Of a DNA stretch of 64,000 nucleotides, positions 12,817-49,879 are shown one piece after another (the stretch's first letter is position 1; each line of letters begins with the position of its first letter). Made by a program: the position numbers and the translations under genes. The DNA is taken from the NCBI RefSeq assembly GCF_004010195.1, contig NC_057758.1:7146277-7210276 (forward strand), written 5' to 3'. Below the pieces are notes generated by a model. It was not told the origin of the DNA. It was given only the letters and a program-made list of their open reading frames with translations, and searched no databases. Source of the DNA: Chiloscyllium plagiosum (taxonomy: Eukaryota).

Positions 12817-13025
12817 GAGAAAGTGAGGACTGCAGATGCTGCAGATCAGAGATTAAAAATGTGTTGCTGGAAAAGCGCAGCAGGTCAGGCAGCATCAAAG
12901 GGGCAGGAGAATCGACGTTTCGGGCCTTCTTCAGGATTCTTGAAGAAGGGCATATGCCCGAAATGTTGATTCTCCTTTTCCTTTGATGCTGCCTGACCTG
13001 CTGCGCTTTTCCAGCAACACATTTT
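12817..13025. mobile_element. Fold-back Penelope-terminal-repeat element (family A) with 17-bp TSD
   Basis: Inverted repeat flanked by TAAATACTGACA(A/G)AATG at 12800-12816 and 13026-13042. Paralogous copy at 36024-36222. Confidence 0.85.
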
Positions 13026-14939
13026 TAAATACTGACAGAATGCCCAACACTTCCCTGTAAAAACTGACACGTTTCCCTGCACCCGCCTATTAATACCAAC
13101 CCACTCCCTTCGATTACCCTTTAAATACTAACACCCCTGGAATAACTACATGCTCCCAGGTACAGTCTCGCAACACCGACACAGTCCTTGTGACCCACCC
13201 TGTAATTATTGACTCACTCCCCACGATTCACCTGTAAGTACTGAAACACACCACGGGAGCCCCATATTAACACTGATATGCTCCCCGGGATCCCCACTGT
13301 AAAAACTGGCACAATCCACAAGACCACCCAGTAAATACTGACACTTTCCACCGGGACACCCCTGTCAATCTCCATGTGCCCTCCCCTATAAATACCAACT
13401 GTCTCTACGGTAACCCACTGGAAATGCTGATACACAGCCCAGGACCTCAGTAAAAACTGACACATTCCCCGGTACACCTCTTTTAATGCTGTCACACTGC
13501 TCAAGAACGCCACTGAAAATACTCACATATCCCCTGTTCCCCGAATAACTACCGAACACTGCACGGGAATTCGCGACTGAATACTAACACATCCTGGTAG
13601 ACTCCTCCATCACCCCCGTAAATACTGAAAATGCCCCGGGGTACATTCCTGTAAATGCTGACACATACCCCGGTGCACCCCTCTAAATACTGTCACACTG
13701 CCCAGGAACATGGATACATTCCCTGGAAAACCCTATAAATACGGACTGCTGCCTGGCAATTTCCCACTGAACATTAACACACAGCACAGGACAGCACGCC
13801 CTGTGAAAACCCGAAAAACCCGGGGAACCTTCCTGTAGCTCCTGACACACTCCTCGGCGCACACCTTTAAATGCCATCACAGTGCCCTGGAAACCCTCTG
13901 TAAATATTGGCACATACCCCGAAAGACGACCGTGTCCATAATGACACACTTCCCGGAAACTACCTGTAAATAACTACACACTCCCCTGTATAACCCCCGT
14001 AAATACTCACTCCCCTGTATACCCCCGTAAATACTCAAGTACTGCCCAGAACCCCCGTAAATACTGACCCCACTCCCGCTACATACCGAATTTCTCCGTC
14101 GGACTCCCCTGTCAATACTGAGATACATCATGAGACACACCAATAAACATTGACACACAACCCGGATCCCTCCTGTAAATACTGACACTTTCCCCACACA
14201 CCCTTGTAAATACTGACACAATACCTGGAAATCATTCTGTTAATACTGACACAGTCCCCAAGACCCCAATCCGGAAGTGCAGCAGCCTCCTCAAGTACAT
14301 CTGACACACTCAACATGACCACCCCGTAAATACCGACTCTTTCCACCGGGACACCACTGTACATACTGCCATTTATCCCAGTAACTCTCTGCAAATACCT
14401 ACACACTCCCTCTGACCACCCCTGTAATTCTTGACACACTCCATGGCATCCCCTATAAAAATGAACTTTCTCTCCCCAGGAGCCCTGTAAATGCTGACAC
14501 ATTCTTCAGAACACCCTTGTAAATGTCGTCACACTGTCCTGTTACCTTTCCCCCACCCCCAAAGACTGACACATTTCCCGTAAATAATGACACATTCCCG
14601 GGGATCGCCCCTGCAAGTAGCGACATACTCCCTTGCACACACCCCTGTAAATATTGACCTACGCCCTGGAACTCCCACTAAATACTGAAACACTCCACGT
14701 GACTCAACTGTAAATAACAATACACTCCACGCGACCCCCGTAAACACTGACACATTCCCCAGGACCACCTGAAAATACCGACACTTTCCCCGCCACATCC
14801 CAATAGATGCTGACACATACCCCTTTAACACCCTGCAAATACTGACACACTCCCTGGGACCAACGCCCAGGAAGTAATGGCACCCTCCCTGAGACCACGT
14901 CTGTAAATACAGACACTGTCCCCCGGAACCACTCTGTAA

Positions 14940-15227
14940 AGATTAGATTCCCCGACAGTGTGGAAACAGACCCTTCTGCCCATCAAGTCTGCACTCAGCA
15001 GCAAGATCCATTTCCCTCTGACTAATGCGCCTAAAACTCCAGGCAATTTACCTTGGCCAATCCATCAATCCTACACATGTTTGTACGGTGGGAGGGAACT
15101 GGAGCACACGGAGGAAACTACTCAGACACGGAGAGAATGTAGAAACTACACAGACAGTCAGGATTCGAACCTGTGTCACTGGCCCTGTGAGGCGGCAGTG
15201 CTAATCACTGAGCCATCTTGGCGCCCC
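14940..15227 (-). mobile_element. tRNA-derived SINE (HE1-like) inside satellite
   Basis: GATTAGATTCCC tail through GCAGTGCTAATCACTGAGCCA head, reverse orientation. Confidence 0.85.
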
Positions 15228-17162
15228 AAATATTGCCATATTCCCCAAGAACCCCTATAAATTCCGATACTCTCCTCTGAATCCTCTGCAAATACTGACA
15301 CACTCACCGAGAAGATACCAGTAAGTTATAACACACTTCCTGTTACGATCCTGTGAATACTGACACACTCACCTGGGACACCCCCTGTAAATACAGACGA
15401 TCTCGCTGTGACCCCACCTGTAACTACTGGCACACGCTACGGAAACACCCTTGTATATGCCAAGAAAGTCCACAGGGACACCCCCGTAAATACTGATGCA
15501 CTCGTCGGGACATCCTTATAAGTACTGGTACTCTATTCAGGAACCCACTGTAAATACTAACACACAGCACAAGTGTCCACTGAGAATACCGACTCACTCC
15601 CCGGCATCACCCTGAAAAGACTGACACAGTCGCTGGGCGTCCCCTGTAAATAATGATACATTCCCGTGGAGGGCCCTGTTCATACTGAAATGCTTCCCGG
15701 GAGACCTCCTGTAAATACCGGCACAGTCCATGGGAGCACCGTGCAAATACTGACATGCTCCGCAGGACACCCCTGTAAACACTGACACGCACCACAGGAC
15801 CACACTGTAAATGGTGACACCCACCCCCCCATGCCCCCGTTAAATACCAACGCACTCCCTGGAGCCAAGCCCTGTAGATACTGACACACTCCACGGGACC
15901 CTCCCATAATTACCATTACTCACCTTGGGAAATACCTGTCAATACAGACATACTCCTTGGTATCCCCTGCAAATCACAGCACACTTCCCGGGATGCTGTG
16001 TGTAAATACAGACACTCTCTCTGCGATGCCCCATGTAAATGTCAACGCACTTGCAAATAAGGACATCCTCACTGGGACCCCCTGTAAATACTGACACAGT
16101 CCCTAGGTTTTGTCCTGTAAATACTGAAACACTCCCCAGGACACCACCTGTATATACTGACACACTCCCCAGGACACCACCTGTAAATACTGACACACTC
16201 CCCAGGACACCACCTGTAAATACTTACACACTTCCGAGGAGCCTCCTGTGAATCCTGGCAAACTCCCCAAGATCCCCCTGTAAATAACAATACACTGCCT
16301 GGGAGCCCCTCCCCGCTTCCCGGGACACCCATGTTAACACCGACACACTTCCACACACTTCCGAGGAGCCTCCTGTGAATCCTGGCAAACTCCCCAAGAT
16401 CCCCCTGTAAATAACAATACACTGCCTGGGAGCCCCTCCCCGCTCAATAAATGCAGGCACTCTCCCCGGGACCCCTCTGTAAATAGCGACACTATCTCAG
16501 GACGTAACCCCTGTAAATACTGACTCAACCCCAGGGACACCTCTTCTAAATATCGACACACTTGCTGGGACAAATCAGAGAATCCTGGCACATCCCCCGG
16601 ACGCCCCTGCAAATAATGACACACTGCCTGAGAGCCCCTCTGTAAATACGGACACTCTACCCGCAGACCCTTTTTAAATATCGACACTCCCAGGACACAA
16701 CCGCTGTAAATGCCGACTCAGCCCCAGGGTCACCCCCCTGTAAATATCAACACAGTCCCCAGAACCAACCTGTCAATACTGACACGCTTCCCGGGACACC
16801 CATGTTAACACCGACACACTTCCCAGGACCCACTTGAAATACTGGCACACCTTCCGGAAACCCCTATAAATGCCGACTATGTCCTCAGGACCCCACGATA
16901 AATGCAAACACACTGCATGGAACCGTCCTTGAAATGCTGACTCATTCCCAAGTACCCCCTGGTAAATACCAATACACTCCCTAGGATACTCTGTGTTTCC
17001 CAACACTCTCCCTGGGACCTCCCTGTAAATATTGACACACTCCCTGGTATCCTCCTGTTAATAATGACACACTCTCTGGGACGCTCGCTGTTAATGCAGA
17101 CACTCTCCCTGGGACATCCCTGCAAATACCCACACACTCCACAGCACTTCCCTGTAAACATG

Positions 17163-17481
17163 AGATTAGATTCTCCACAGTGTGGAAACAGGTCTTTCAG
17201 CCCAACAGGTCCACACCGCTCCTCCAAAGAGAAACCCACCAAACCCATTCCCCTACCCGATAATCACCCCGGACTAACGCATCTAACTCTTTGGGTACTT
17301 CAGCCTGGCCAATTCACCTGAGCTGCACATCTTTGCATTGTGGGAGGAAACCGGAGCACCCGGAGGACACACACGCAGACACAGGGAGAATGTGCAAACT
17401 CCACACAGACAGGCAGAAATCAAAAGAAAGGACCTGGTGCCGTGAGGCAGCAGTGCTAACCAGTGAGCCACCATGCCGCCC
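17163..17481 (-). mobile_element. tRNA-derived SINE (HE1-like)
   Basis: Full head, core and tail in reverse orientation. Confidence 0.88.
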
Positions 17482-18044
17482 AATACTGACACACATTGGG
17501 AGCCCCTCTAAATACTGACATGCTCCCCGGACACAACTGTAAATACCGTCACATTGCGCGGGAACTCCACTGTAAATACTTCACACTTATCAGGGCCCCC
17601 CTGTAAATGCTGAAAATACCGCAGGAAATTCCGTGTGCACAATGACCACCATGGAACTACTCACAATCTCCCTGGGAACACATTGAAAATACCGCTACTC
17701 TCCCCGGACCACGCACATGCATTTCGATGGTGTCCCCCTCAGCCCCACTGTAAATACTTACATTCCACACAGGATCCACCTATAAATCCCGACAGTCTCC
17801 TCGGAAACCCCCTGTAAGTAATAACGCACTGCCTGCCAGTCCCTTGCTAATACCGATACTCTACCAGACTACCCTGTGTTTCCCAACACTCTCCCTGGGA
17901 CCTCCCTGTAAATATTGACACACTCCCTGGTATCCTCCTGTTAATAATGACACACTCTCTGGGACGCTCGCTGATAATGTAGACACTCTCCCTGGGACAT
18001 CCCTGCAAATACCCACACACTCCACAGCACTCCCCTGTAAACAT

Positions 18045-18363
18045 GAGATTAGATTCTCCACAGTGTGGAAACAGGTCTTTCAGCTCAACAGGTCCACACC
18101 GCTCCTCCAATTAGAAACCCACCAAACCCATTCCCCTACCCGATATTTACCCCTGACTAACGCATCTAACTCTGGGCACTTCAGACTGGCCAATTCACCT
18201 GAGCTGCACATCTTTGCATTGTGGGAGGAAACCGGAGCACCCGGAGGACACACACGCAGACACAGGGAGAATGTGCAAACTCCACACAGACAGGCAGGAA
18301 TCAAAAGAAAGGATCCTGGTGCTATGAGGCAGCAGTGCTAACCACTGAGCCACCGTGCCGCCC
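18045..18363 (-). mobile_element. tRNA-derived SINE (HE1-like), copy made by local ~880-bp duplication
   Basis: Closely similar to 17163-17481, including both flanks. Confidence 0.88.
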
Positions 18364-19084
18364 AATATTGACACACACTGGGATCCCCTCTAAATACTGA
18401 CATGCTCCCCCGACACAACTGTAAATACCGTCACATTGCACGGGAACTCCACTGTAAATACTTCACACTTACCAGGGCCCCCCTGTAAATGCTCAAAACA
18501 TCGCAGGAAATTCCGTGTGCACAATGACCACCATGGAACTACCGACAATCTCCCTAGGAACACACTGAAAATACCGCTACACTCCCCTGGACCACCCACA
18601 TACATTTCGATGGTGTCCCCCTCAGTCCCACTGTAAATACTTATATTCCACACAGGATCCACCTATAAATACCGACAGTCTCCTCGGAAACCCCTGTAAG
18701 TAATAACGCACTACCTGCCAGTCCCTTGCTAATGCCGATACTCTACCAGACCATAGCCCCCCACCCCGTAAAAACTGACACACTCGCGAGAAGACACACT
18801 CCCTGGGAACCCCTGCACATGCTTATATTCTTCTCAGAAACGCCCTGTAAATACCAGCACACTCCCTGGGACGCAGCGCTTACATGCCATTGCGCTCCCC
18901 GGACACCCCGTAATGACTGACACTCTCCAGGATTCCCCTGTAAGTACCAAAGCGCTCACCCGAAGACCCTGTATACACCGACACGCTCGTCAGAACACAC
19001 CTGTGAATATTGGCACACTTCCAAGAACCCTTCTGTAAATATTGATAGGCACCCCAGGAATCCCCGTTAAAATGTGATACACTC

Positions 19085-20760
19085 TTGTCCCACTCTGTCT
19101 CATCCTCTCTTTCTAATACACCTCTCTCTCTGTCTCTCTCTTCCACCCTCCCCGTCCCTATTTTACTCTTTACCTCCCCACTTTCTGTATCTCTAACCCA
19201 CTCACATACTCTCTCTCTACGACCTCCCACTCTCTCTCCCTACACCATCCCAATCTCTTCCTACGCTCTCTCTCTACCCCACTCTCTTTACCCTTCCTTC
19301 TCTCGCTGCAAATATCTCCCACTCTCCTCTTCTCTCTTGCTGTACCCGTCCCACTACCTCTGCCCTCCTGCCAATCTACCTCTGCCCTCCCTCTGTTTCT
19401 CTCCCCACTCCCTCTCTCTCATTGTTTCCCCACTCCAACTCTCACTCTGTATACTTCACTCTCTCTCCCCACTTCCACCCTCTTTCTACACGCTCCCACC
19501 CTCTCTCTTCCCTACCAATCTCTCTCTACCCCCTCTCACTCTCAATCGCTGTACCCCACCCACTCTCTTTGCCACCTCCTACTCTCGCTCTCTAAAACTT
19601 CCCTCTCTCTATCCCCTCTCACAGTCTATATCCTCTCTCTGCCTTTTCCCCCGACTCTCTCGCCACTGAAATATTTCCCATTCTCACTATCTCTCTTTCT
19701 CTACCCCGTCCCATTCTCTCTTCCCTCCTCCAATTCTCTCGCTACCCTTCCCACTATCTGCCTCTCTCTACCCCCAGTCTCTCCACACCTCCTAATCTCT
19801 CTCTCTCCACCTTTCCACTCTCTCTAAATCCCTCCTACATTCTCTCTACGCCCCTCCAACTCTACCTAAGTAACCTATTGCCTCTCTACCCCTCCCTACC
19901 CCTCTTCCTGCATCCCAGTCTTTCTATCTGCCTCCCTCCCACACGCTCTCTCCTCCCTCCTCGCACTCTGTCTCGATCTACGCCTTCCCATCTCTCTACC
20001 ACACCAACACTCTCTCTTTCTCTCTCTATCCCACTCCCTCTATGTCTCCCTACTCCCTTACTCTGTCGTTTTCTCAATCTTCCCTGCTCCCATTCTCTCT
20101 GTCTACCCCCTCTCTCTACCGCCTTCTCCCTCTCTCACTTTACCCATTCCCACTATGTCACTCCACCGCCTCCAATTCTCTCAGCCCTCTGCATCTCTCT
20201 CTCTCTCTCTCTAACCCGCTCCCTTTCTCTCTTTCTCCTACTCTCTATCTCCCTCCCTTTCCATCTGACAGAATCTCGCTTCCTCCCTCTCTATCTAACA
20301 CACACTCTCTCGCTGGTCCTTCCCTCTCCCTCTGCTCCAGAGAGCGGGGAGGAGTGGGTCCGGCGGTGTTGGGTGGTGGTACAGAGGTTAGAGGGATATG
20401 GGGTTTGGGAGGAGGGAGAAAATGGAGGAGAATTGGAAAGGCGGGATGTAGACAGAGGTTGCAGGAGAGTGAGAGAGAAATAGAGGGAGGGTGAGAAGAG
20501 TTTAGGTAGTTGGAGCGACGAGGTAAGAGACAGAGTGAGTTGGGGCAAGAGATACCGAAAAGGAGAAGAGCAGAGGAAGAGAGGGATTGAGGAGAAAGAG
20601 CGAGAGAGAAATGAGGAGGCGAAAGTTGGGAAGAGGAAATGGGGAAAGCGTTCAAGAGAAGGGATGAGGGGGAGGAGTGAGAGTGAGCGTTTGAAGTGAG
20701 TGAGAAAGAGAAGGATGTGATTGAATGGAGGTGGAGGAAACGCAGTCGAGAAATGAACTT
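19085..20760. repeat. Low-complexity CT-rich tract (19085-20338) switching to GA-rich tract (20339-20760)
   Basis: Direct inspection. The switch occurs at CTCTGCTCCAG/AGAGCGGGGAGG. Confidence 0.9.
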
Positions 20761-20973
20761 TGCTGAAGGCCAGGTAGGAATGGGGGCAACCTCAAGGTGA
20801 AAGCAAGGACAGAGGGAGTTACACCCAACTCCTGAGCTCATGTTTCAGTTCTCTCTGCTTCCCTGAGAACCAGGACTTGGAGCTGAGTCTGTCTCTCTCC
20901 AGCTCAGCTTCTTCAAGACAAAGACAAACATGAACATCACTGACTGTGCTGCTCGTCACATTTAATGAACATT

Positions 20974-20979
20974 TTTATT
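20974..20979 (-). terminator. Candidate polyadenylation signal of GPCR copy 1
   Basis: AATAAA on the minus strand about 245 nt past the stop, followed by GT-rich sequence. Conserved in copy 2. Confidence 0.55.
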
Positions 20980-21222
20980 GTTTCCAAAACTGAAGTAATT
21001 GATACAGTCAGTGCGATGGTGCCTTTTCTCACTGGCCACTGAGTTGAGAGAAACTTTAAAATAAGTCCCCTTGTCCCTTTAACCACACTCACCCCCCCCT
21101 CCCCCCGCCACCCGTGGGATAAGGATGGAGAAACCAAAGCTACCCTCAGTCTGTTACAATAAGAATAGGCTGCTCCATCGCTGAAACACTGAACTGAAAT
21201 GAGAAAATCCCGGATGGATTGA

Positions 21223-22130
21223 TTAATGAGTGAATTTAATTGATTGGTTAATTTCGGTGAAGGGATATTTCAGCACATTCTTCAGCTGCTGTCTGAACTT
21301 AGTCTGGGTCACGACATAAATCGCGGTGTTTGTGCAGCAACTGAGGAGCTGCAGCATGAAGCCCAATTCCTGAACGAAAGGATGGGGAATCACAGGCGTA
21401 TCCAAGATCCAATACATTCGGTTCCATATAGAATACATCATTAACGTTCACCATAACAGGATGAAATTGGCCGAGATCACAAACAGTAAAATGATGGAAA
21501 CCTTTCGGTTTTTCATTTCAGTGTCAGACTGAGCGTCCCCATTGGTGTGAGCCCGGAGTCTCCTGCGGGCTCTGCTGGTGAATGAAATGTGTCGGACCGT
21601 AAACACATTGAGCAGCAGAATCAGGAGAAATGGGAGAGCCGGAGTTAGAATTTGGTGGAGGAACTCAGTTGTGACCCAGAAACGGGAGGAATAAGCGCCA
21701 TCTGTTGCAACACAAAACCAGGGGTCATTTCCCAGCCGATACCGAGCGGTGAGCAAAAAATACCAGAAAATGTTCTTTGAGCAGCTCAGCACAGCCACTG
21801 CTCCTAGAATCACAGCCGCCGTTTTCTCACGGGAATATCTACTTTTCAGCTTTTGGCAACAAATGGCCACAAACCGATCAAAGGTGAAAGTGACGGTGAA
21901 CCAGACAGAACAGTCAGTGGCTGCATAAAGCAGGACGGCGTGGATATTACACACAGGGATTTAGTACAGGAAATAAAACTTTGTCCGATAAGCAATGGGA
22001 ATGTGTCTCAATGTCAAGTCGAGGATAATAACCAGTAGATCCGCCGCTGCCATAGACCCCAAGTAACGTCTGACACATGGAGACAATCCACAATCTTTAT
22101 ATAGCAAGACATAGATCGTCACTATGTTAA
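21223..22130 (-). pseudogene. Class A GPCR (GPR139/GPR142-like) pseudogene, main coding exon
   Basis: Same 908-nt exon as 44436-45343, with MAAADLL, TFDRFVAIC and NTAIY motifs. In-frame TAA at 21961-21963 (TCC in the paralogue) and TGA at 21448-21450 (TCA in the paralogue). Acceptor AG at 22131-22132. Confidence 0.9.
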
Positions 22131-22735
22131 CTGTGAGGAAGGAAAAGAAATATATTATCCATCTGACAGGAGGCAAAGTCACCAGTTTGATTGAAGAGTC
22201 AGTGAGATTTTTCAAATGTGTCACGGCATTCAGTGATTAACTAAAATGATTGGAGCTGAAATAAAAATGGGAAGGTTTGTATTATGGACACAAATTTGTC
22301 ATAGAACACATGAAACCCTCCCTCCCCAAACACACAGAGGCACATCCATAAGAACAGGTGGTTTCCAGAACATTCCGATACACTTGATCACTCCAAAGCA
22401 AACCCAAGTCACTGGTTCGAGATTTTAATACAGAGGTTGAAAATGGTGCTGTCGTCAAGGATTCTCTCTCAGTTCCTTGAAGACAAACGGAGGTTGGAAA
22501 TTTCTGTCTTTCAGTCGAAATTGTATTTGAACCAAGTGAAAAAATGGAAATGCAATGAAAACGTATTCACATCTTTAACTGTCTGAGATGACTTTGGAAC
22601 AGAGTGTCCTTCTCTCTGGAACGGGATCTCTTCCCTTTGGGTCTTATCTTTTGTTCAATTCACTGACGTTTGGCCGTTCACAAATGATGTCAGAGATGGA
22701 ATGGTCCAGAGAATGTCGATTATAGAATGTACGGG

Positions 22736-22940
22736 GAGAAAGTGAGGACTGCAGATGCTGGAGACCAGAGTTGAAAAGTATGGTGCTGGAAAAGTGCAAC
22801 AGGCCAGGCAGCATCCGAGGAGCAGGAGAATCGACATTTCTGGCATCAGCCCTTCTTTAGACCTATGCCCTAAACGTCGATTCTCCTGCTCCTCGGATGC
22901 TGCCTGGCCTGCTGCGCTTTTCCAGCACCACACTTTTCTA
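22736..22940. mobile_element. Fold-back Penelope-terminal-repeat element (family A)
   Basis: Inverted repeat flanked by TATAGAATGTACGG (22721-22734) and TATAGAATATACGG (22942-22955). Confidence 0.8.
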
Positions 22941-22941
22941 C

Positions 22942-23180
22942 TATAGAATATACGGTACAGAATGATCTGGGGATGTTTATTATAAAATGTTGGGTACAGT
23001 ATGTTCAAGAGCATTTCAGTTATGGATGGTCGGGTAGAGAATGTTATGGGTCATGTAAGTTATGGAATGTTGGATACAGAATGTTCCTGGGAATATCAGT
23101 TATAGAATGTGGGGTACAGAATTTTCCAGCAATGTCATTTATAAATGTTGGGTAGAGAACATTCCATGAAATTTTCAGTG
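22942..23180. repeat. Degenerate 40-bp minisatellite, about 6 units
   Basis: TATAGAATGT.GGGTACAGAATGTTC..GG.AT.TCAGT at 22942, 22981, 23021, 23061, 23101 and 23140. Also at 46142-46380. Confidence 0.8.
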
Positions 23181-23184
23181 GCCA

Positions 23185-24560
23185 TACCGTCACGATTCCT
23201 CACCTTTTCCTCTGCTGCAACAATGACTAAATCGGTGCCACCTCATGATCTCAAAAGGAGGATGAACAGTTCTTCAACTTCGTAAACACATTCCACCCTG
23301 ACCTTAAGGTCACTTGGATCATCTCACTCACCTCACTCCCCTTCATGGACGTCTCCATCTTCATCTCTGGTGACTGACTAACCATGGACATCTACTGCAA
23401 TCCCACCGATTCCCAGATCTACCTGTACTACTTCTCCTTCCATTCTGTCTCCTGTAAAAACGTCATTCCTTATTCCCAAGTCCCCTGCCTCCTCCTCACA
23501 TGCTTCCAGGTTGACTAATTCCACGTTATATAATCTCAAATTGACTCATTCTTCCTTGACCACAAATACCTTTCCCACGTGGTCGACGATGCCATCCAGC
23601 GCATCTCCTCCATTTCCCATACCTCCCCACTTGAACACCGCCGGTCCCAACGAAATAAGGTCAGAGACCCGCAGTCTACATCTTCCAGCTCACCAACCAG
23701 CAGACACTTCACCTCATACTCAGCCACTTCCGCCACATACAAACCCCACTGCCAGAGATATATTTTCTCCGTGCAGCTATCAGTGTTCCCTAGTCAACAT
23801 TCGCTCCATGGCTCTCTTGTCAGATCCACGCCAATCCACCAGTCCACACCCCATTCCCGACACCTTCCCCTGCCAATGCAGGAAGTGCAAATCCTGCGCC
23901 ATCACCTCTCCCCTCACCTCTTTCCAAGGCCACAACGGAGCCTTCCACATCTGACAGAAATTTACCTGAACTTCAGCAAATCGCATTCACTGCGTAAGTT
24001 GCACCCAAAGTGGTTTCCTGTACATCCGGGCGACAGGATGCCATCTTCTGGATCCTTCCAGAGAAAATCTCTGGGACACACGCACTAACTAACTCCATCG
24101 CCCCTTGGCTGAACACTTTAAGTCTCCCTCCCACTCCATCAATGACATTGAGGTCCTGGGCCTCCTCCAATCACCATCCCCTAACCACCCGACGCCTGGA
24201 GGAAGAACTGCCTTGGGACCCTGCAACCACATGCGTTCAATGTGGATTCCAACAGATTCCTCATTTCACCTCCCCTGGATTTATCCTAGATCCAACCCGA
24301 CAAATCAGCACCGCCTTCCTAACTTATCGATCACCTTTCCCATCAATCTGCTCCATCCTCCTCTCCGATCTATCACCAAATCTCCCACATTCATCGTCTA
24401 TCGTATTCACATCTACCTTCTCCTCAACGCCACTCCCTTCCATTTATATACTTACACCACGACCCGCAAGCACTAATCCTGATTAAGGGCTTATGCCAGG
24501 AACATCAATTCTGCTGCTCCTCGGATGCCGCCTGACCTGCTTTGCTGTTCCATCGTCATA
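23185..24560 (+). mobile_element. Penelope-like retroelement, 5'-truncated (RT C-terminus, GIY-YIG, terminal repeat), decayed
   Basis: LPFMDVSI..MDIYCNPTDSQIYL..CKNVIPYSQ and TFPCQCRKCKSCA motifs, ending in a CTGATTAAGGGCTTATGCC terminal repeat. Confidence 0.85.
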
Positions 24561-25189
24561 CACACAGAATGAGACCTGATGGATAATATTTCATGAAGCC
24601 CCATTACCACCCCGGGTATACCTTGACACACAGTCACCGTGGAATACGTTTAGGAAAGGAGTTACCCTGGAATTACACAACATTGATTTTAGAATTCGGG
24701 AAATCTCATGGTAACAGGTCAAAGTTGGTCAAGAAAATCGCCTGATGATGTACATCTACTTCCCTCCTCACCACGCCTCATTGATAACTCAGTTCCCCAT
24801 GACGTAGGCAACAATCGGATGAAGCACTGAGGCAGACAAGGACACAAAACGTACTCTGAGTGTGGGACTAAAAGGTCTCTGCAGGTGTCTCTGCAGGTCC
24901 ACCAAAAACTGAGCTGGGCGAGGCGAGAAATATACAGTAGCCCGACTTTGTGAAGTGAAGCGGGAATCAAAAATAAGGAATCATTCTCACAAACTACTTG
25001 TCACAAATGGATGTGTCCCTAACGGTATCTGTAGGATCGGGAAGCACACAGTCCTGAGCGCGGGGACGTCTCAGTCTCATATTGAAGATACCGTCCACTG
25101 TATTATGTGGCACTACCTCCTGTGAAGTAGGACATACCTCGAATATATCGAGAAAATGGAATGTGAGCATCCATGAGGCACTGTGGGCT

Positions 25190-25320
25190 GTCGACAGCTG
25201 CATCATCAACGACCTTCCGTCCCTGATAAAGTCAGAAATGGGCTGTTCACTGATGGTTCCAAAATATTCAGCACCATTCACAACTATACCTATACTGAAG
25301 CAAGTTATTCAGCACATCAA
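25190..25320 (+). mobile_element. LINE RT remnant (FADD region)
   Basis: SCIINDLPSLIKSEMG followed by CTGTTCACTGATG (LFTD), a degenerate INDLP...FADD RT motif. Confidence 0.6.
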
Positions 25321-25479
25321 GAGTATTAATCAGGGATCGAATAAGGCCATTCAGCTATTCGAGGCAGTTTCTCAGCAACGTGAGCAGATCTTTCCATCTC
25401 TCATGACTGTTACACAGGAAATGGAAGGTAACATTCATCCATTCAAAACAGCCATAAACAAATACGTAGTGGACTGATT

Positions 25480-28400
25480 AGTAAGGCAGGTGCAGAGTTA
25501 AAGTTGGTTTAAATAAGTCTTTATCAGGTAACACAAATTAACAACTGCAGTGACACATTGATCCGTGCTGGGGCCTCACCTATTTGCAAACGATATCATG
25601 GTTTCAATAAATGCAACAAACGTGCTCGAACTAAATTTGAAATGACACTAAGCGAGACAGGAACTGAAGTTATCAAGAGGAGGTAGAGAATCTCTAATTG
25701 AATAAGCAATTTGCGAGCTGGAATATAACGTGGGTAACCACGAATCTGTGAATGTTTCAGGCAAAATGAAACGTTGTATACTACATAAACAGGGAGAGAT
25801 TACAGGAGTCAATGATACAGTGTGTACCAGAAAGTTCACTCTGACACTTTCAGACATCGGAGGTGTTGCTTCATCTCCATGATGGTCTGCTCACCGATGT
25901 TCCCGGGGCCCCATTGCTCTCAGTACACACCTGGTAGTTAGACGTGGTTGGTTGACGACTGGGACTCAACTTTATTTCCTCTTGGAAAATAAGACAGGGT
26001 ATGTGATTGAGCTGTTACACTCATATCATTTTGTAACGAGTGATTGTCATTCCCTTATTTTGACAATAGTTCCGGAAAAGGCTGAACCTTGTCCACAAAT
26101 TAACTTTATAATTATGGGCAATGTTGATGGCATTAGGCAGGAAAATACAAAAGATAATCACAGAAAAACTGTTTGAGTTTGAAGGACGTTTGGAAGTGGG
26201 CATCTTTCAAAAGCGAGATAATTAAAGTCCAGTGACAACGTGTTCCTGTTAGTGTGAAAAGAAATGTTCGCAGGAATAGGGAATACCACATGACAGGAGA
26301 TATTGTGATTTGGTCAATGAAAAAGAAGGAGACATATGTCTGTTGTGAGAAGCGAGGATCAAAGGAATCCCTTGAGCGTCCAGGGTGTTAGAGTACATTT
26401 ACGGCGGAAATCAGAAGGGCAAACAGGGAACATGTGATCGCTTTGGCTGATCAGGTTAAAGGGAATGGAAAAAAAAATCCTGCAAGTATATTAAGCGCAA
26501 AAGACAAACTAAGGAGGGAATAGGGCTGCTTAAAAATCAAACTGCAAACTATGTGTGTTTCCACAGGAGATGAATTAGGTTTATTACGTTTATTGTCACA
26601 TGTACTCACATGAGAACAGTGAATAGTTTACAAATCACGACATGTGACACAATCTTACATAAAGAGGTAAACCCCTCCAGCTACAGAATCTTAGTGAAAA
26701 GTGGAAAAATAAAAACACCAGAGCTAAAATGTAAAACATTGCAGCCCTTCATTTAACAGTGGAAATATAGAAAGACAGTGACAAGTTCAACAACACAGTC
26801 CATAAGCGCTTGGCCAAGCTGGATACACACTTCTCATAAGGACTGAAACTCCCAGACTCCTCTGCCTTACAGCCTGCTCCTGTTCTATGAGTGAGATCAT
26901 ACACAAACATATCCCGCATCAATATTTACTGTGGAAAAAAAGCTGGAAGTGAGGCAACTCAGGGAAATAAATCCATGCAGTGATGTTTTGAAACGAGACC
27001 AAATTACAGAAGAGGAAGTGGTGAAGTTTTTCAAATTCATAACCGTAGATTAATACCCACGACCTGTTCAAGCATATCCCAGGTCATTGTGGGAAGCTGG
27101 GGAAGTCATTGTGGAGCCGCTAGCGGAGATATTCGTATTATCCTCAGAGTTGTGATGAAGGGTCCCTGGACCCGAAACATTATCTCTGTATTCTCTGCAC
27201 AGATGTTGCCAGACCAGTTGAAATTTACCAGATAATTTTTGTCTTGTTTCCGATGAAGCATTTGCAGTTAGTTCAGACTTTATTTGTATCATTGAGAACC
27301 ACGGGTGACGTGATGAAGGGCTCGAAGACAGATAATATTGTAATATTAATTTGAAAACGGTATTAAGGAAAAGGCAGGGAACTACAGCGTGGTGTGTTTG
27401 ATGTCAAGGGTGCGTAATTATTTGGAACAGATTCTCAGAAGCAGGATTTACATGAAATTGTAACGGCAAGTACTAATTTTGGAGTTATCACGGCTTTGTG
27501 TATGATAAAATGTGTCTCTAAACTTGTTTGAAACCTTTCAAGACGTGACCAAGAACATCGATAAAGGGAAAGCAGCATACGTTGTCAACGTGGACGTTAG
27601 TGAGGCCAAGAAGGTTCTGCATGGTAGTCTGGTTAATAAGGTTAGATCACAGGGGATCAGGGAGAGCTAGCCAATTCGATTCAAAAGTTAGCTTGACAAC
27701 AGGTGAGAGAGTGTGGTTGGAGAGATTTGTGGTCCTAACTGATATCCTGTGACCAGCAGTGTGCCACAGGACCAGGCATCTGCTGTTTGTTATCTTTATA
27801 AATGATTTGGTTGAGAATATAGGTACCATGGATATTACGTTTGTTGACAAAACCAAAGTTTGTGTTGTAGTGAAAGGTGAGAGGGTCATTTCAAATGGCA
27901 ATGAGATCTTGATCAACTGGATCAGTGGGCCATGTAATGGCAGATGGAGCTTTATGCAGATAAATGAGGGCAGAATTTAATAGTTAATTGTAGGGCTGTA
28001 GGAAGTGTTGTCGAGCAGAGACACCTGGGGTGGAGTAAGACAGTTGCTTGAAAGTGGACCAGCAGGAAGAAACGGCAGTGAATAAGGGGTTAGAAATTCT
28101 TACCTTCATCGTTTAGAGCATTGAGTATAGGAATTGGGACATCAGGTTATTGCTGTACATGAGAATGATAAATCTACTTTGAGAGTATTGAGTACAGTTC
28201 ATGTTACCCTTCTATCGGAAGGATGTTATGAACTGGAAAGAGTATAAAATATTTAAAATGATGCCACGGAGTCTGGAAGTTTTGAGACATAAGGATAGCG
28301 GTAACATTGAAAACGATCTGGATCTCCCTGCACACCAGTCACTGAAAGCAATATTGCGGGAACAGAAAGTAGTTTGGAAAATAAATGGTCTGTTGACCCT

Positions 28401-28690
28401 CATCGTAACGGGACTTGAGTACAGGAGTAAGTAGCTGTACAGGGCCTGGGTGAGCCCCCATGTCGAACATTATGCAGTATGGTATGCAGTTTTCCTCTCC
28501 TTAGTTAATGAAGGAAAAACCTGACGTTGAGTGAGTGCAGCGAAGGATGACCTATCTGATCTCTAAGAGAACAAGCTTGTTGTGGGAGCATAGTTCGGGA
28601 CATGGGGTTTAGGCAAATGAGTGGAGATCTCAGTGAAATACATATATGTCTGTCAGGGCGAGAGGGATTGGAAGCAGGAATGATAATTCC
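25480..28690 (+). mobile_element. Cluster of heavily decayed CR1 LINE ORF2 fragments with nested insertions
   Basis: SDCHSL, LLFVIFINDL..TFVDKTKV and LPFYRKDV motifs, with many stops. Confidence 0.75.
27145..27275 (+). mobile_element. Short Penelope-like terminal repeat (family D) with decayed hammerhead, inserted in CR1
   Basis: CAGAGTT-GTGATGA-A-GGGTCC-CT-GGACCC-GAAA-CATT-ATCTCTG. Imperfect flanking duplication ATTCGTATTAT/ATTTGTATCAT. Paralogous copy at about 51578-51710. Confidence 0.6.
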
Positions 28691-28775
28691 CCTGATGAAG
28701 GAGCGTCGCTCCGAAAGCTAGTGTGCTTCCAATTAAAGCTGTTGGACTATAACCTGGTGTTGTGTGATTTTTAAC
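28691..28775 (+). mobile_element. Family B terminal-repeat fragment with hammerhead core
   Basis: CTGATGA-A-GGAGC-GTC-GCTCC-GAAA-GC-TA-GTG at 28692-28723, then GGACTATAACCTGGTGTTGTGTGATTTTTAAC. Confidence 0.7.
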
Positions 28776-34560: not shown

Positions 34561-36023
34561 NNNNNNNNNNNNNNNNNNNNNNNNNNNNNNNNNNNNNNNN
34601 NNNNNNNNNNNNNNNNNNNNNNNNNNNNNNNNNNNNNNNNNNNNNNNNNNNNNNNNNNNNNNNNNNNNNNNNNNNNNNNNNNNNNNNNNNNNNNNNNNNN
34701 NNNNNNNNNNNNNNNNNNNNNNNNNNNNNNNNNNNNNNNNNNNNNNNNNNNNNNNNNNNNNNNNNNNNNNNNNNNNNNNNNNNNNNNNNNNNNNNNNNNN
34801 NNNNNNNNNNNNNNNNNNNNNNNNNNNNNNNNNNNNNNNNNNNNNNNNNNNNNNNNNNNNNNNNNNNNNNNNNNNNNNNNNNNNNNNNNNNNNNNNNNNN
34901 NNNNNNNNNNNNNNNNNNNNNNNNNNNNNNNNNNNNNNNNNNNNNNNNNNNNNNNNNNNNNNNNNNNNNNNNNNNNNNNNNNNNNNNNNNNNNNNNNNNN
35001 NNNNNNNNNNNNNNNNNNNNNNNNNNNNNNNNNNNNNNNNNNNNNNNNNNNNNNNNNNNNTTGTTAATATGGACATGCTTCACGAGACCCCGTCCTCGTA
35101 AATACCAGCAATTTCCCCGCCACAACCCTGTAAATACTGATACATACCTCGGCATCACCCGTTAATTACGAACACACTGACAGGGAAAAAAAAACAATTA
35201 ATACTGACACAGTCCCTGGTAACTTCACCCCCGGAAGTACCGACATATTCCTCGTCCCAGAGATCACACTCTTTGGAAATATGGAATAAATCGCTCTCAC
35301 AGGCAGTTTAGTTTAGTTTTAGTTCCCTGTTGGAACTGGCTCACTCCTCGGGAACACCCCTGTAAATATTGACACATACCCCGCTAACGACCTGTAAATG
35401 CCAACACACTCCCCGGGACCCCTTCTTTAAATACTGACATACTCCCTGGGGCCCACTCTATAAACACAGGCTCTCTCACAGGAACCGCCTGTAAATACTA
35501 ATACAGTGCCTGGGACCTGCCGTGTAAAACCTTACCCACCCCCCAAGTCACCCCTGTAAATACCGTCACACTGCACTGTAAGTACTGATATACTCCTCAC
35601 ACCACTCCTGTAAATATAGACGCACTCCCTGGGACACGCCTCTAAATCCTGACACACACCCCGAAATGTAGCTGTAAACAATGGCACACTCTCCTGCGTA
35701 TTCCTTTAAATGCTGACGCACACTCCGGGCCCCAATTTAAATTCTGCCACTTTTGCCTGAAACATGTGTAAATGCTGGTGCATTCCACAGAAACTCCTGC
35801 AAGTACTGCCATATTGGCTGGGACGCACATTCCCAACACCACCATGTAAAGTCTAAGTTACTCCCGGGGACATCTCGGTAAATGCTGGCAATCTCCACGG
35901 GACCACACTTGTGAATACTGGCACTATACCTGGGATCACCCTGTAAGTACTAACTCACTCACCAGGACGCCCTGTGAATACTGACACACTGCCTGGGGAG
36001 ACCCTATAAATACTGACAAAATG

Positions 36024-36222
36024 GAGAAAGTGAGGACTGCAGATGCTGGAGATCAGAGCTTAAAAATGTGTTGCTGGAAAGCGCAGAAGGTCAGGCAGCA
36101 TCAAAGGAACCGGAGAATCGACGTTTCGGCCCTTCTTCAAAGAAGGGCTTATGCCCGAAACGTCGATTCTCCTGCTCCTTTGATGCTGCCTGTCCTGCTG
36201 CGCTTTTCCAGCAACACATTTT
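36024..36222. mobile_element. Fold-back Penelope-terminal-repeat element (family A) with perfect 17-bp TSD
   Basis: TAAATACTGACAAAATG at 36007-36023 and 36223-36239. Confidence 0.88.
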
Positions 36223-38123
36223 TAAATACTGACAAAATGCCTAACACTTCCCTGTAAAAACTGACACATTTCCCTGGACCCGCCTATTAATACCAACACA
36301 CTCCCTTGGACAACCCTTTAAATACTAACACAATCCCTGGCACTCACCCCTGGAATAACTACATACTCCCAGGTACAGTCTCGCAACACCGACACAGTCC
36401 TTGCGACCCACCCTGTAATTACTGACTCACTCCCCACGATTCACCTGTAAATACTGAAACACTCCACGGGAGCCCCATATTAACACTGACAAGCTCCCCG
36501 GAATCCCCACTGCAAAAACTGGTACAATCCACAAGACCACCCAGTAAATACAGACACTTTCCAACGGACATTCCTGTAAATCCTTACACTCTCTATGTGC
36601 CCTCCTCTATAAATACCAACTGTATCTCCGGTAACCCACTGGAAATACTGACACACAGCCTAGGACACCAGTAAATACTGACACATTCCCCGGTACACCT
36701 CTTTTAATGCTGTCACACACCTCAAGAACTCAATTGAAAATACTCACATATCCCCTGTTCCCCTAATAACTCCCGAACACTGCACGGGAATTCACGTCTG
36801 AATACTAACACATACTACGACAATCCTCCATCATCCCCCCCGCCCCTCGTAAATACTGAAAATACCCCGGGGGAAATTTCCTGTAAATGCTGACACATGC
36901 CCCGGTGCACCCCTGTAAATACTGTCACACTGCCCAGGAACATGGATACATTCCCTGGAAACCCCTATAAATACGGACAGCTGCCTGGCAATTTCCCACT
37001 GAATACTGACACACAGTGCATGACAGCACGCCCTGTGAAAACCCGAAAAACCCAGGCAACCTTCCTCTAACACCTGACACACTCCTCGGCGCACACCTTA
37101 AAATGCCATCACAGCGCCCTGGAAACCCTCTGTAAATATTTGCACGCACACCGAAACATGACCCTGTCAATAATGACACACTTCCCGGAAACTACCTGTA
37201 AATAACTACACACTCCCCTGTATATCCCCCGTAAATACTCAAGTACTGACCAGAACCCGTACACACTGACCCCACCCCTGCGCTACATACCAAATTTCTC
37301 CCTCGGACTCCCCTGTCAGTACTGACACACATCATGAGACACACCCATAGACATTGACACAAAACACGATCACACTGTAAATAATGACACTCCCCCCACA
37401 CCCCTGTAAATACTGACACAATACCTGGAAAACATTCTGTTAATACCTACACACTCCCAAAAACACCCAATCCGGACGTGCAGCAGTCTACTCAATAACA
37501 TCTGACACACTCAACATGATCAACACGGAAATACTGACACTTTCCACCTGGACACCACTGTAAATACTGCCATTTATCCCAGTAACGCTCTGCAAATACC
37601 GACACACTCCCTATGACCACCCCGGTAATTTTTGACACACTCCATGGTATCCCCCATAAAAACGAACTCTCTCCTCACAGGAGCCCTGTAAATGCTGACA
37701 CATTCTTCGACCCAGCCTTGTAAATGTTGTCACACTGCACTGTTACCTCCCCCGCCCAAAGACTGACACACTTCCCGTAAATAATGACACATTCCCGGGG
37801 ATCGCCCCTGTACGTCGCGACATACTCCCCTGCACATCCCGCCGTAAATATTGACCTACGCCCTGGAACTCACACTAAATACTGAAACACTCCACGGGAC
37901 CCAACTGTAAATATCAATACAGTCCACGCGACCCCCGTAAACACTGACACATTCCCCAGGACCACCTGTAAATACCGACACTTGCCCCACCACATCCCAA
38001 TAGATACTGACACATACCCCTTTAACACCCTGCAAATACTGAAACACCCCCAGTAAGTAATGACACTCTCCCTGAGACCACGCCTGTAAATACAGACACT
38101 GTCCCTGGGAACCCCGCTGCAAA

Positions 38124-38411
38124 GATTAGATTCCCCTACAGTGTCGAAACAGACCCTTCTGCTCAACAAGTCTGCACTAACCAGCCAGATCCATTTCCCT
38201 CTGACTAATGCGCCTTAAACTACTGGCAATTTACCTTGGCCAATCCAACAATCCTTTACATGTTTGTACGGAGGGAGGGAACTGGAGCACCCGGAGGAAA
38301 CCTACTCAGACACGGAGAGAATGTAGAAACTACACACGCAGTCAGGATTCGGACCTGTGTCACTGGCCCTGTGAGGCGGCATTGCTAATCACTGAGCCAT
38401 CTTGCCGCCCC
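38124..38411 (-). mobile_element. tRNA-derived SINE (HE1-like)
   Basis: Paralogue of 14940-15227. Confidence 0.85.
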
Positions 38412-38620
38412 AAATATTGCCATTTTCCTCAAGAACCACTATAAATTCCGATACTCTCCTCTGAATCCTCTGCAAATACTGACACACTCACCGAGAAGAT
38501 ACCAGTAAGTTCTAACACACTTCCTGTTACGATCCTGTGAATACTGACACACTCTCCGGGATCCCCCTGTGAATAACGAAACATTACATGGGACACCCCC
38601 TGTAAATACAGACGATCTCC

Positions 38621-39460
38621 TCTATATTGGGGAGACAGGCCGCCTACTTGCGGAGCGCTCCTCTATATTGGGGAGACAGGCCGCCTACTTGCGGAGCGAT
38701 TCAGAGAGCACCTCTGGGCCACCCGGACGAACCAACCCAATCACCCTGTAGCACAGCATTTCAACTCCCCCTCCCACCCCAGCGAGGATATGCAGGTCAT
38801 TGGACTCATCCACCGCCAAACCACAACAACGCGACGGTCGGAGGAGGAGCGTCTTATCTTCCGACTGGGAACACTCCAACCACAGGGGATGAACTTGGAC
38901 TTCACCAGTTTCTTCATCCCCCCTCCCCCCACCTTGTCTCAGCCGAATCCCTCCAGCCCGGCACCGCCTTCCTGACCTGCAGTCTTCTTCTTGACCTCTC
39001 CGCCTCCATCCTACTCCGACCTATCACCCTCACCTTGACCTCTTTCCACCTATCACATTCCCAACGCCCCTCCTCCAAGTCCCTCCTCCCTACCTTTTAT
39101 CTTCTCCTGCTGAACACTCTCTGCTCATTCCTGAAGAAGGGCATGTGCCCGAAACGACGAATCTTCTGTTCCCTAGATGCTGCCTGACCTGCTGTGCAGC
39201 AATAAAGTTTCAGCTTTGATCTCCAGCGTCTGCAGACCTCACTTTCTCCTCGAAGATTTCAACCTACTGCGAATCCTCTTACAAGGATGCCTTCCTTGAA
39301 GAAGCTCTCTGTGCTGAACACTCTCTGCTCATTCCTGAAGAAGGGCATGTGCCCGAAACGTCGAATCTTCTGTTCCCTAGATGCTGCCTGACCTGCTGTG
39401 CTGTTCCAGCAATAAAGTTTCAGCTTTGATCTCCAGCGTCTGCAGACCTCACTTTCTCCT
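38621..39460 (+). mobile_element. Young Penelope-like insertion: GIY-YIG 3' fragment plus tandem terminal repeats, 8-bp TSD
   Basis: LYIGETGRLLAERFREH..PVAQHFN..MQVIGL..RRSEEERLIFRLGTLQPQGMNLDF. CGATCTCC at 38613-38620 and 39461-39468. The site is empty in unit 1 (about 15395). Confidence 0.9.
39331..39366 (+). ncRNA. Putative minimal type I hammerhead ribozyme (intact core)
   Basis: AUUC-CUGAAGA-A-GGGC-AUGU-GCCC-GAAA-C-GUC-GAAU, with stem I AUUC/GAAU, stem II GGGC/GCCC and predicted cut after 39362. Confidence 0.72.
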
Positions 39461-41496
39461 CGATCTCCCATTGAACCCTCCTGTAACTACTGGCACACCC
39501 CACGGAAACACTCATGTATAAGCCGACACAATCCACTGCGACATCCCTGTAAAAAAACAAACACAAACCCCAGTAACCCTTGTAGATACAGACAAACTCG
39601 CCGGGAACCCACACTCCGTAAATACTGATGCACTCATCGGGACACCCTTATAAATACTGATACTCTACTCTGGAACCCACTATAAATACTAACAACACAC
39701 AGCACAAGTGTCCACTGTGAATACTGACACACTCGCTGGGCGTCCCCTGTAAAAAATGATACATTCTACGGGAGGGCCCTGTAAATACAGAAATACTCCT
39801 CGGGAGACCTCCTGTAAATACTGGCACAGTCCATGGGAGCACCGTGTAACTACTGACATACTCCCCAGGACACCCCTGTAAACACTGACACGCACCACAG
39901 GACCACACTGTAACTGGTGACACACACCCCGCATACCCCCTTTAAATACCAATGCACTCCCTGGCGCCAAGCCTTGTAGATACTGACACACTACACGGTA
40001 TCACCCCCCTCCCCCCCATAATTACTAATACTCACCTTGGGAAATACCTGTCAATACAGACATACTCCCTGGTATCTCCCAGCAAATCACAGCACACTAC
40101 CCGGGATGCTGTATGTAAATAGAGACACTCTCTGCGAAGCCCCCTGTAAATGTCAACACACTTGCAAATAAGGACATCCTTACTGGGACCCCCTGTAAAT
40201 ACTCACACAGTCCCTAGGTTTTGTCCTGTAAATACTGAAACACTCCACAGCACACCACCTGTAAATACTGACACACTTCCGAGGAGCCTCCTGTGAATCC
40301 TGGCAAACTCCCCAACATCCCCCTGGAAATAACAATACACTGCCTGGGACCCCCTCCACGCCCAATAAATGCAGGCACTCTCCCCGGGACCCCTCTCTAA
40401 ATAGGGACAATATTCAGGACGTAACCCCGTAAATACCGACTCAACCCCAGGGACACCCCTTCTAAATACCGACACACTTGCCGGGACAAACCTGTAAATC
40501 CTGGCACACTCCCCGGGACGCCCCTGCAAATAATGACACACTGCATGGGACCCCCTCTGTAAATACAGACACTCTACCCGGGAACCCCCTTTAAATACCG
40601 ACACTCTCCCAGGACACAACCGCTGTAAATGCCAACTCAACCGCAGGGACACCCCCCTGTAAATACCAACACAGTCCCCAGGACCAACCTGTCAATACTA
40701 ACACGCTTCCTGGGACCCCAATGTAAATACTGGCATGCTCCACTTGACGCCCCTGTAAATACCGACAGACTCCCCAGGTCTCCCTGATAATACCGACACA
40801 CTCCTCGGGACCGCCTCTGTAAATATTGACACATTACACGGGATCCCTCATGAAAATATCGACAGGCTCTGCACCACACCGCAGTAAATACTGAAACACA
40901 CCCCGGGAGCACTCTGTAAATAGTGACCAACTCCCTGAGGCCATCCTGAAAATTCTGACACACTCCCTGGAACCCCACTTGAATACTGGTACTCTCCCTG
41001 GGAACCACCTGCAAATACTACCACATTCCCCAGGACCGTCTTGCAAATACCAACACACTCCCCGGGGCACCCTGTCTCTATCGACACACTTTCCAGGACC
41101 CCGCTGTTAACACCGACACACTCTCCAGGGCCCCACGTAAATAAAAACACAGTCCCCAGGACCCACTTGAAATACTGACACACTCCCCGGAACCCCCCTA
41201 TAAATGCCGACTATGTCCTCAGTACCCCACAATAAATACAAACACACTGCATGGTACCGCCTTTTAAATGCTGACTCATTCCCAGGCACCCCCTGGTAAA
41301 TACCAACACACTCCCTCGAACACCCTGTATTTCTCAACACTCTACCCGGGACCTCCCTGTAAATATTGACACACTCCCTGGTATCCTCCTGTTAATAATG
41401 ACACACTCTCTGGGACGCTCGCTGTAAATGCAGACACTCTCCCTGGGACATCCCTGCAAATACCGACAAACTCCACAGGACTTCCCTATAAACATC

Positions 41497-41817
41497 AGAT
41501 TAGATTCTCCACCATGTGGAAACAGGCCTTTCAGCCCAACAGGTCCACACCGCTCCTCCAAAGTGAAACCCACGCAAACCCATTTCCCTACCCGATATTC
41601 ACCCCTGACTAACGCATCTAACTCTGTGGGCACTTCAGCCTGGCCAATTCACCTGAGCTGCACATCTTTGAATTGTGGGAGGTAACCGGAGCACTCGGAG
41701 GACACACACACAGACACAGGGAGAATGTACAAACTCCACACAGACAGGCAGGAATCAAAAGAAAGGACCCTGGTGCTGTGAGGCAGCAGTGCTAAACACT
41801 GAGCCACCGTGCCGCCC
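41497..41817 (-). mobile_element. tRNA-derived SINE (HE1-like)
   Basis: Single paralogue of the two SINEs at 17163 and 18045. Confidence 0.88.
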
Positions 41818-49824: not shown

Positions 49825-49879
49825 TCTCATGACTGTTACACATGAAATGGAAGGTAACATTCATCCATTCAAAACAGCC

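Follow-up and report, generated by a model that had tools for sequence, protein, structure and literature searches.

The literature has described minimal hammerhead ribozymes in the pseudo-LTRs of metazoan Penelope-like elements (PLEs) since 2014 (Cervera and De la Pena, PMC4209133). Such motifs showed low activity in vitro even as dimers, and their palindrome permits a 4-bp helix between two copies (PMC4209133); cleavage as dimers was described by Lunse et al., as summarised in PMC6765202. For PAc, a Poseidon element of Anolis carolinensis, cleavage was reported to need the element protein, priming to take place inside the RNA, and insertion to proceed in the absence of cleavage (Frangieh et al. 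2024, PMC11167929). Non-LTR retrozymes (bioRxiv 10.64898/2026.07.22.740005; PMC7229834) likewise have type I hammerheads that derive from pseudo-LTRs, and hammerhead-bearing retrozymes have been reported in one cartilaginous fish (bioRxiv 10.64898/2026.07.22.740005). The freely searchable literature yielded no report of a hammerhead ribozyme in a shark genome, and two supplementary files of PMC4209133 yielded no shark examples.

We analysed a window of 64,000 nucleotides from Chiloscyllium plagiosum (NC_057758.1, positions 7,146,277 to 7,210,276), together with the 3.56-Gb assembly it belongs to, and encountered this known kind of ribozyme in a new host. The motifs are very probably minimal hammerheads in the pseudo-LTRs of at least four PLE families, three Neptune-like and one Poseidon-like, predicted to cut only as dimers, with most copies being mutated leftovers likely copied from uncut RNA. 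A sequence-only reading of the same DNA had proposed dense, dimer-working minimal hammerheads of Penelope-like elements, and the GIY-YIG frames, the pairing stems and a density of 46–48 per Mb described below support it. The window contains the following features, numbered from its first nucleotide.

5097–5242, minus strand: decayed family B copy (blastn).
7806–7969, plus strand: decayed family B copy (blastn).
11594–11806, both strands: head-to-head family A pair; in the minus-strand copy (core 11684) the core, stem II and the palindrome are preserved, along with 3 bp of stem I.
27148–27199, plus strand: decayed family D pseudo-LTR copy with core, stem II (27160–27173) and GAAA (27174–27177).
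27881–28488, plus strand: decayed LINE ORF2 (RT) fragment between the D and B copies and part of neither (tblastn 27–40% identity, best E 4e-20).
28691–28775, plus strand: family B pseudo-LTR copy, 5'-shortened, with core (28692–28698) and stem II (28700–28712).
28732–28772, plus strand: family B poly(A) signal, ATTAAA (28732–28737) and GU-rich stretch (28755–28772).
38577–39457, plus strand: Neptune-like 3' end of family A, GIY-YIG frame (38577–38975) followed by two direct pseudo-LTR copies.
45937–46136, both strands: head-to-head family A pair upstream of a GPCR exon; in the gene-strand copy C replaces G8 and the palindrome is disrupted.
48845–49829, both strands: two Poseidon-like 3' ends of family C, arranged head-to-head and retaining traces of GIY-YIG; ribozymes at 48957 (minus) and 49779 (plus), both mutated.
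57754–57850, plus strand: family A copy, core 57759, stem I of 4 bp, one mismatch in stem II.

The descriptor applied to the 64-kb window comprised CUGANGA, an optional extra base, stem II, GAAA, NN and UH. Its strict form, with a stem I of at least 3 bp, matched three sites (39335 and 57759 on the plus strand, 11684 on the minus strand), a number reached by 0 of 200 dinucleotide shuffles (mean 0). When the demand for stem I was dropped, leaving core, stem II and a palindromic NN, the plus-strand site at 28692 was added as a fourth, with a shuffle mean of 0.02. The relaxed form found 10 sites, compared with a mean of 0.6 and a maximum of 4 over 200 shuffles. No form was equalled by any shuffle, confirming that the CUGANGA...GAAA-NN-UH layout recurs at the places first named for it. 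Without the extra base after A9 the descriptor matched nothing in the window. Using real copies as blastn queries we identified about 31 pieces of families A–D, some of them duplicates belonging to a 23–24-kb segmental duplication within the window; four hold core, stem II and palindrome. As expected for a motif without stem III, no hammerhead family figured among the six matches (E up to 5) of an Rfam covariance-model search of the window, which picked up only hairpin look-alikes; these stem from the head-to-head junction at 11645–11723.

Several details of individual copies differ from the initial description. The stems AUUC/GAAU and GGGC/GCCC ascribed to family A hold only in part, with GGGC/ACCC found at 57759 and a stem I of only UUC/GAA at 11684. 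In the sole direct pair of the window, the first copy (~39131) carries U16.1 changed to A, and the second, with its core at 39335 and a predicted cut at 39362/39363, is intact; longer relatives of this element lie at genomic loci L142 and L148. Retrozymes are recognized by at least two head-to-tail units with complete hammerheads, whereas the copies here are dispersed or head-to-head, their neighbours in the window and in 80 random stretches being mostly on the opposite strand. The family B motif with GGAGC/GCUCC and its core at 28692 retains core, stem II, an extra A (28699), GAAA (28713–28716), the AGCU palindrome and a predicted cut at 28720/28721, but stem I is down to 1 bp because the copy starts at 28691. 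The B sites near 5174–5202 and 7845–7877 had rightly been called decayed, both copies being degraded. The family C copy placed at about 49776–49815 has lost the closing pair of stem II (C11.1 to A at 49779), and in its inverted partner at 48957 GG replaces the palindrome.

The family D copy reported at 27145 does have the core C mutated to G (C3, position 27152), a change that abolished cleavage in the anole element (PMC11167929). It also has an extra A at 27159 and a stem III palindrome broken to CA from CG, and its segmental duplicate at 51582–51633 shows the same core changes; C3 is kept in 29 of 30 genome copies of family D picked without fixing that base. The proposed stem I, CAGAG/CUCUG, belongs to the window copy only, that of the family being AGUU/AACU. 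Judged from the sequence, the CAGAG/CUCUG pairing probably has its origin in TCCTCAG, the D core in reverse complement, which abuts the first bases of the copy; the likely start of the copy is the A of AGTT, 4 nt ahead of the core. The LINE fragment, which we take to be CR1-like, lies between the end of the D copy at 27199 and the start of the B copy at 28691. The interval 27145–28723 is therefore not one element but two unrelated copies separated by a fragment of LINE type.

In the majority sequences of families A, B, C and D the core elements CUGANGA, GAAA and UH are arranged in type I order. An extra base (A in families A, B and D; U in C) stands between A9 and G10.1, and the G10.1–C11.1 closing pair and a paired stem II were found in five of five majority groups, for family A also with downstream-only anchoring. 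These groups were formed from 337 distinct motif copies, of which 273 fell into five groups and 64 into 'other'. Of the 35 pairs in the majority stems 32 are kept, compared with 49 of 126 after strands were exchanged from one family to another, in line with the claim that the stems differ yet pair; the search patterns had partly determined stem II in this count, stem I never. Pairs were counted by anchoring on the core, as a MAFFT alignment of 15 copies misregistered family B. Stem I spans 3–4 bp in the majorities, and the largest A group (GATT) has a U–U mismatch at its third pair. The families are not mutually unrelated, as first stated: A and D are homologous, with 61 cross-family blastn matches spanning the core. 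The core, the extra base between positions 9 and 10.1, G10.1–C11.1, the short stem I, the palindromic 15.2–16.2, the several covarying families per genome and the mostly single or opposite-strand copies all resemble the PLE motifs of PMC4209133. Stem II, in contrast, has 4–5 bp in A, B and D as against 7–8 in Schistosoma.

A stem III without a loop cannot close in a monomer. In our families there is no loop 3, and the palindrome at 15.2–16.2 is CG in A and C and GC in B; in D that position reads CA in 17 and CG in 10 of 30 copies, the CA being read as CpG decay. The motifs are accordingly predicted, from sequence, to cut only as two copies joined by pairing of the ACGU or AGCU palindrome. When monomers and dimers were folded by minimum energy the active fold was not recovered, the active double hammerhead appearing in 0 of 9 dimer sequences, and these folds were rejected as a line of support.

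Copies were also collected by the sequence behind the ribozyme only, giving 130 from family A, 110 of them covering the ribozyme. Core and palindrome were kept in 30 of 110 A, 3 of 19 B, 1 of 2 C and 1 of 5 D copies. Among the 110 A copies, only N7, the free position of the core, differs from one subfamily to the next (A 51, T 50); the remaining non-CpG positions of the core are 81–99% fixed, and CpG sites decay at 13–22% whether the fold requires them or not. This pattern implies a fold that is kept in master elements and decays after insertion, and the pairing reflects selection on master elements and not on inserted copies.

Each family was found behind a GIY-YIG frame, consistent with the Penelope-like carriers first suggested. 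Family A lies downstream of a frame with RT motifs, a CNRRRCNTC linker (CxxxxCxxC) and a GIY-YIG end (L142; Pfam GIY-YIG E=2e-4, with weak matches on longer copies), and relatives of this frame have PF00078 and PF01541. Pfam gave no GIY-YIG match on the GIY-YIG remains of the window. Family B follows a similar frame with a CHGRRCKTC linker (L238) and a long 3' UTR; its core lay on the sense strand behind the frame in 8 of 12 loci picked by the B GIY-YIG end, and no direct 5' pseudo-LTR was found in 12 long loci. Family D has GIY-YIG remains upstream at two loci (L107 and L118), with only the GIY-YIG end seen. The frame of family C (L145) has a DKG motif plus a GIY-YIG at its C terminus (weak in Pfam, E=0.096; blastp to the A frame E=4e-8) and no linker zinc finger. 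By the motif features of PMC8557442, A, B and D appear Neptune-like and C Poseidon-like, the two kinds of protein sharing about 33% identity over about 85 residues. Families A and B share with the Neptune clade of EN+ PLEs (PMC8557442) the RT, the CX2-5CxxC linker and the C-terminal GIY-YIG, and a further likeness lies in head-to-head truncated copies with two 3' ends about 35–40 nt apart; for family D, known from its GIY-YIG end alone, the linker was not seen. The best relatives of the retroelement proteins of the window are in carpet sharks and rays.

This family C locus is a pLTR-ORF-pLTR element with a ribozyme in both repeats, 2.27 kb apart, whose ATG lies over A9, the extra U and G10.1, an overlap also described for the anole element (PMC11167929); no C copy that was both intact and full-length was seen. 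As in PAc (PMC11167929), the ORF starts at ribozyme stem II, the cut site (predicted in family C) follows the start by about 28 nt, as against 26 in PAc, and the ends of copies fall at two points some 40 nt from each other, the later of them about 108–121 nt into the ORF (111–118 in PAc). PAc was assayed in vitro, whereas family C is known from sequence alone.

Exact patterns matched the genome 65,074 (A), 17,799 (B), 8,164 (C) and 1,121 (D) times, with 0 matches for each reversed control. Generic core patterns, which did not demand paired stems, gave 132,589 (control 43) and 31,360 (control 9) matches, together 163,949 versus 52, equivalent to 46 per Mb or about one core per 22 kb. A pairing descriptor applied to 80 stretches at preset positions (766,248 bases) gave 37 matches, 48 per Mb, compared with 0–2 in ten Markov controls. 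The claim of a high ribozyme density, understood as predicted motifs, is thus supported by two methods. The extra base was present in 36 of the 37 matches, only 9 had at least three contiguous stem I pairs, and only one same-strand pair with matching palindromes lay within 10 kb. Extrapolation from the downstream-anchored copies suggests several hundred thousand family pieces in the genome. The motifs are unusually abundant and mostly dead; about 9,000 were given for Xenopus tropicalis and 4,000 for coelacanth (PMC4209133), as against about 164,000 exact cores here, with descriptors that differ.

Copy boundaries were informative. In random DNA, the start falls within −10 to −1, counted from C3, for 49 of 128 A copies (a set that includes some relatives sharing only the anchor) and for 10 of 25 in family B, an inverted copy adjoins 50 of the 128 and 11 of the 25, and the 3' ends form two groups about 35–45 nt apart. 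Among core-bearing A copies 82 of 114 begin 1–10 nt before C3, with a mode at −4, the A of CTCATT. Short B copies have their mode at −8, and in family D a start within 0–7 nt is seen for 26 of 31 copies. TATA or TATA-like boxes, called from the consensus and spacing of initiator and TATA elements, occur at −35 in A (TTTATC, a weak box), −38 to −40 in B and −33 in D, 29–32 nt ahead of the starts. The starts of short copies therefore cluster at the 5' edge of the ribozyme, about 30 nt behind a TATA(-like) box. Family C has a TATA at −53 and few short copies; 7 of 32 start 21–34 nt upstream and 20 of 32 extend at least 60 nt. Motifs and boundaries together suggest that the pseudo-LTR holds a TATA/initiator promoter directly before the ribozyme. 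The Penelope pseudo-LTR is known to have a promoter, described as TATA-less (PMC2377424).

RNA was assessed in about 2% of a single-cell poly(A) run from the same or a close species, single-copy contigs differing by about 4–5%. The stretch carrying the D and B copies received 1,057 reads, of which almost all fell on the B copy, with a bias towards one strand. Of these, 519 (238 + 281) end in poly(A) after 28749 or 28752, 12–15 nt behind ATTAAA and before the GU-rich stretch, and the DNA behind these sites is not A-rich. The B ribozyme was crossed uncut by 586 reads, which continue into upstream B sequence for a median of 23 nt (likely limited by read length). As the reads cross the ribozyme and pass beyond the −8 start, they represent 3' ends of longer RNAs. 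Almost no reads fell on the flanks of this copy, and the reads are assigned to family copies, not to this locus. Family B RNA is thus polyadenylated about 30 nt behind an uncut ribozyme. Family A had 1,498 reads on both strands, of which 91% run into unlike sequence, and the stretch ends before a possible poly(A) site. No pile-up of RNA ends was seen for families A and B, in libraries of a poly(A) type that would lose cleavage products of about 30 nt; from RNA run X20, 0 reads were placed.

These observations can be arranged in a model. A promoter in the pseudo-LTR would start the RNA just before the ribozyme, so that the transcript of a pLTR-ORF-pLTR element would carry a ribozyme at its start and, in family B, just before the poly(A) tail. 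The two ribozyme copies of one transcript could then pair in cis, and lone copies without a partner would likely cut no host RNA. The element protein would probably prime reverse transcription inside the RNA at the 'tail', 80–130 nt behind the ribozyme; internal priming of this kind was shown in vitro for the anole Poseidon element (PMC11167929). Copying from the tail back to the first base of the RNA would yield the short solo and head-to-head copies. A more far-reaching version, which we put forward tentatively and with considerable doubt, likens the pseudo-LTR to retroviral U3-R-U5: a promoter, a hammerhead filling the repeated R from RNA start to poly(A) site, and the priming tail. Short copies would be integrated 'strong-stop' cDNAs of uncut RNA, long copies would need a jump between R copies or a ribozyme-made circle, the 1–2% of copies starting at the cut site would be a fossil record of germ-line cleavage, and family B would lend working poly(A) sites to host transcripts.

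If the ribozyme instead cut efficiently in the cell, the genome should record copies beginning at the cut site. We examined the first 100 of 6,089 family A matches truncated inside the ribozyme, allowing for CpG decay at +28/+29 and for subfamily variants. The first base after the predicted cut, +29, held 14 of 100 starts, 5 of them indels; among the 51 starts from +22 to +34 that were not indels it held 9 (binomial p=0.015 versus uniform, uncorrected); genome-wide, 201 matches start at +29 and 65 at +30. Both counts speak for efficient cutting. Starts at +29 made up 5 of 24 with inverted junctions (p=0.03), but 4 of 27 with unique flanks (p=0.15). Thirty sampled +29 matches comprised 10 indels in whole copies, 14 head-to-head junctions with shared letters and 6 unique copies, compared with 13 unique among 30 sampled at +30. 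We thus set aside the genome-wide contrast as confounded by indels and junctions: it shrinks to about 40 versus 28 unique copies, estimated from 30 loci each. Only 2 of the 128 A copies in random DNA start at +29, as against the 49 starting just before C3, and the RNA reads cross the B cut site uncut. Efficient cutting is consequently an unlikely reading, and the footprint at the cut site is a hint, not a result.

Somewhat less likely again is that the element retains the fold for use as a protein-binding or promoter-linked structure, one that cuts rarely or never. Catalytic mutants of the anole element insert unchanged in vitro, no RNA-seq ends were reported at its cut site (PMC11167929), and Naiad elements spread without such motifs (PMC8557442), to which the weak stem I and the uncut reads seen here can be added. 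Yet the anole motif did cut in the presence of protein, and both C3G and G8C abolished this activity (PMC11167929). Our Neptune-like and Poseidon-like families, for all the divergence of their proteins, also have the core, G10.1–C11.1, the palindrome and UH in common, which counts against this reading.

The abundance of the cores and the poly(A) site that family B provides could suggest ribozymes domesticated by the host to regulate nearby genes such as GPR139-like receptors. We regard this as highly improbable: the copies decay like neutral DNA, the 37 random-stretch matches included a single same-strand pair with matching palindromes within 10 kb, and mutations affect every sense-strand copy upstream of the two GPCR exons, including the duplicate of the 45937–46136 pair at 22737–22936. 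Ribozymes had been claimed for the GPCR intron, but no intact copy lies by the GPCR exons. Exon 1 was not found in the window using the N-termini of 10 relatives (the first 60 residues for 5 of the 10), so that the term 'intron' rests only on a splice acceptor at about 45345; the best relatives of the GPCR are in carpet sharks. Chance resemblance to a short, degenerate motif, which the brevity of the core and the missing Rfam hammerhead match might invite, has a negligible probability and is refuted by the shuffles, the reversed-pattern controls, the random-stretch survey and the covariation of stems between families.

Uncut RNA thus remains the favoured main template, and the cut-site signal is unproven. 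With about 164,000 intact-looking cores, the boundaries of the copies can be read as a map of the element RNA, with its start, its cut site and its priming sites, and this map bears on the role of the hammerhead in transposition.

The window contains tandem segmental duplication units of ~23–24 kb with ~90% identity between them:

12123–28298, first unit
35340–52761, second unit
55217–61160, third unit, partial

The family D copies with cores at 27152 and 51586, and several family A copies, are therein duplicates rather than independent insertions. At 12100–19100, 35300–42400 and 54000–60500, a C-rich, degenerate repeat of ~32 bp forms extended arrays whose GC skew is strongly negative. Two GPR139-like receptor exons, ~80% to carpet-shark proteins, were also located:

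44439–45344 and 21226–22134 (minus), each beginning mid-TM1 at a splice acceptor

Because exon 1 of these receptors was not found within the 64-kb window, the exons may be pseudogenes or belong to genes with very long introns.

Repeated deletions were observed that take out stem II, or the whole span from the start of the core to the cut site:

12936 and 36139 (minus) of the window, hammerhead deletions
L257, L278, L281, L282, L305, L307 and L341, loci of the assembly, hammerhead deletions

At the joints, two to three letters are common to both sides. The deletions possibly reflect a reverse transcriptase that bypasses the folded RNA; alternatively, slippage at a DNA hairpin may have produced them.

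Copies also adjoin or interrupt one another. At L409 (G000:C39:16067500-16075700) a family A pseudo-LTR lies inside a family B pseudo-LTR, directly 3′ of the B poly(A) signal; at L027 an A/B junction is located at the core. Several truncated A copies (L267, L286, L297, L322 and L331) stand immediately 3′ of the same (TAATC)n run, which lies at the end of another repeat, suggesting that this run is a preferred target. An open frame of 339 amino acids adjoins a family A copy in L032 (G000:C1:39821-42848), and resembles the RNase H portion of a retroviral or LTR-element pol.

Additional variants carry the core with different stems:

62627–62759 of the window
L143, 4899 (minus)
L208, 4717
L186, 9762

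Hammerhead-bearing families or subfamilies in this shark therefore number more than the four that the sequence-only reading had distinguished.
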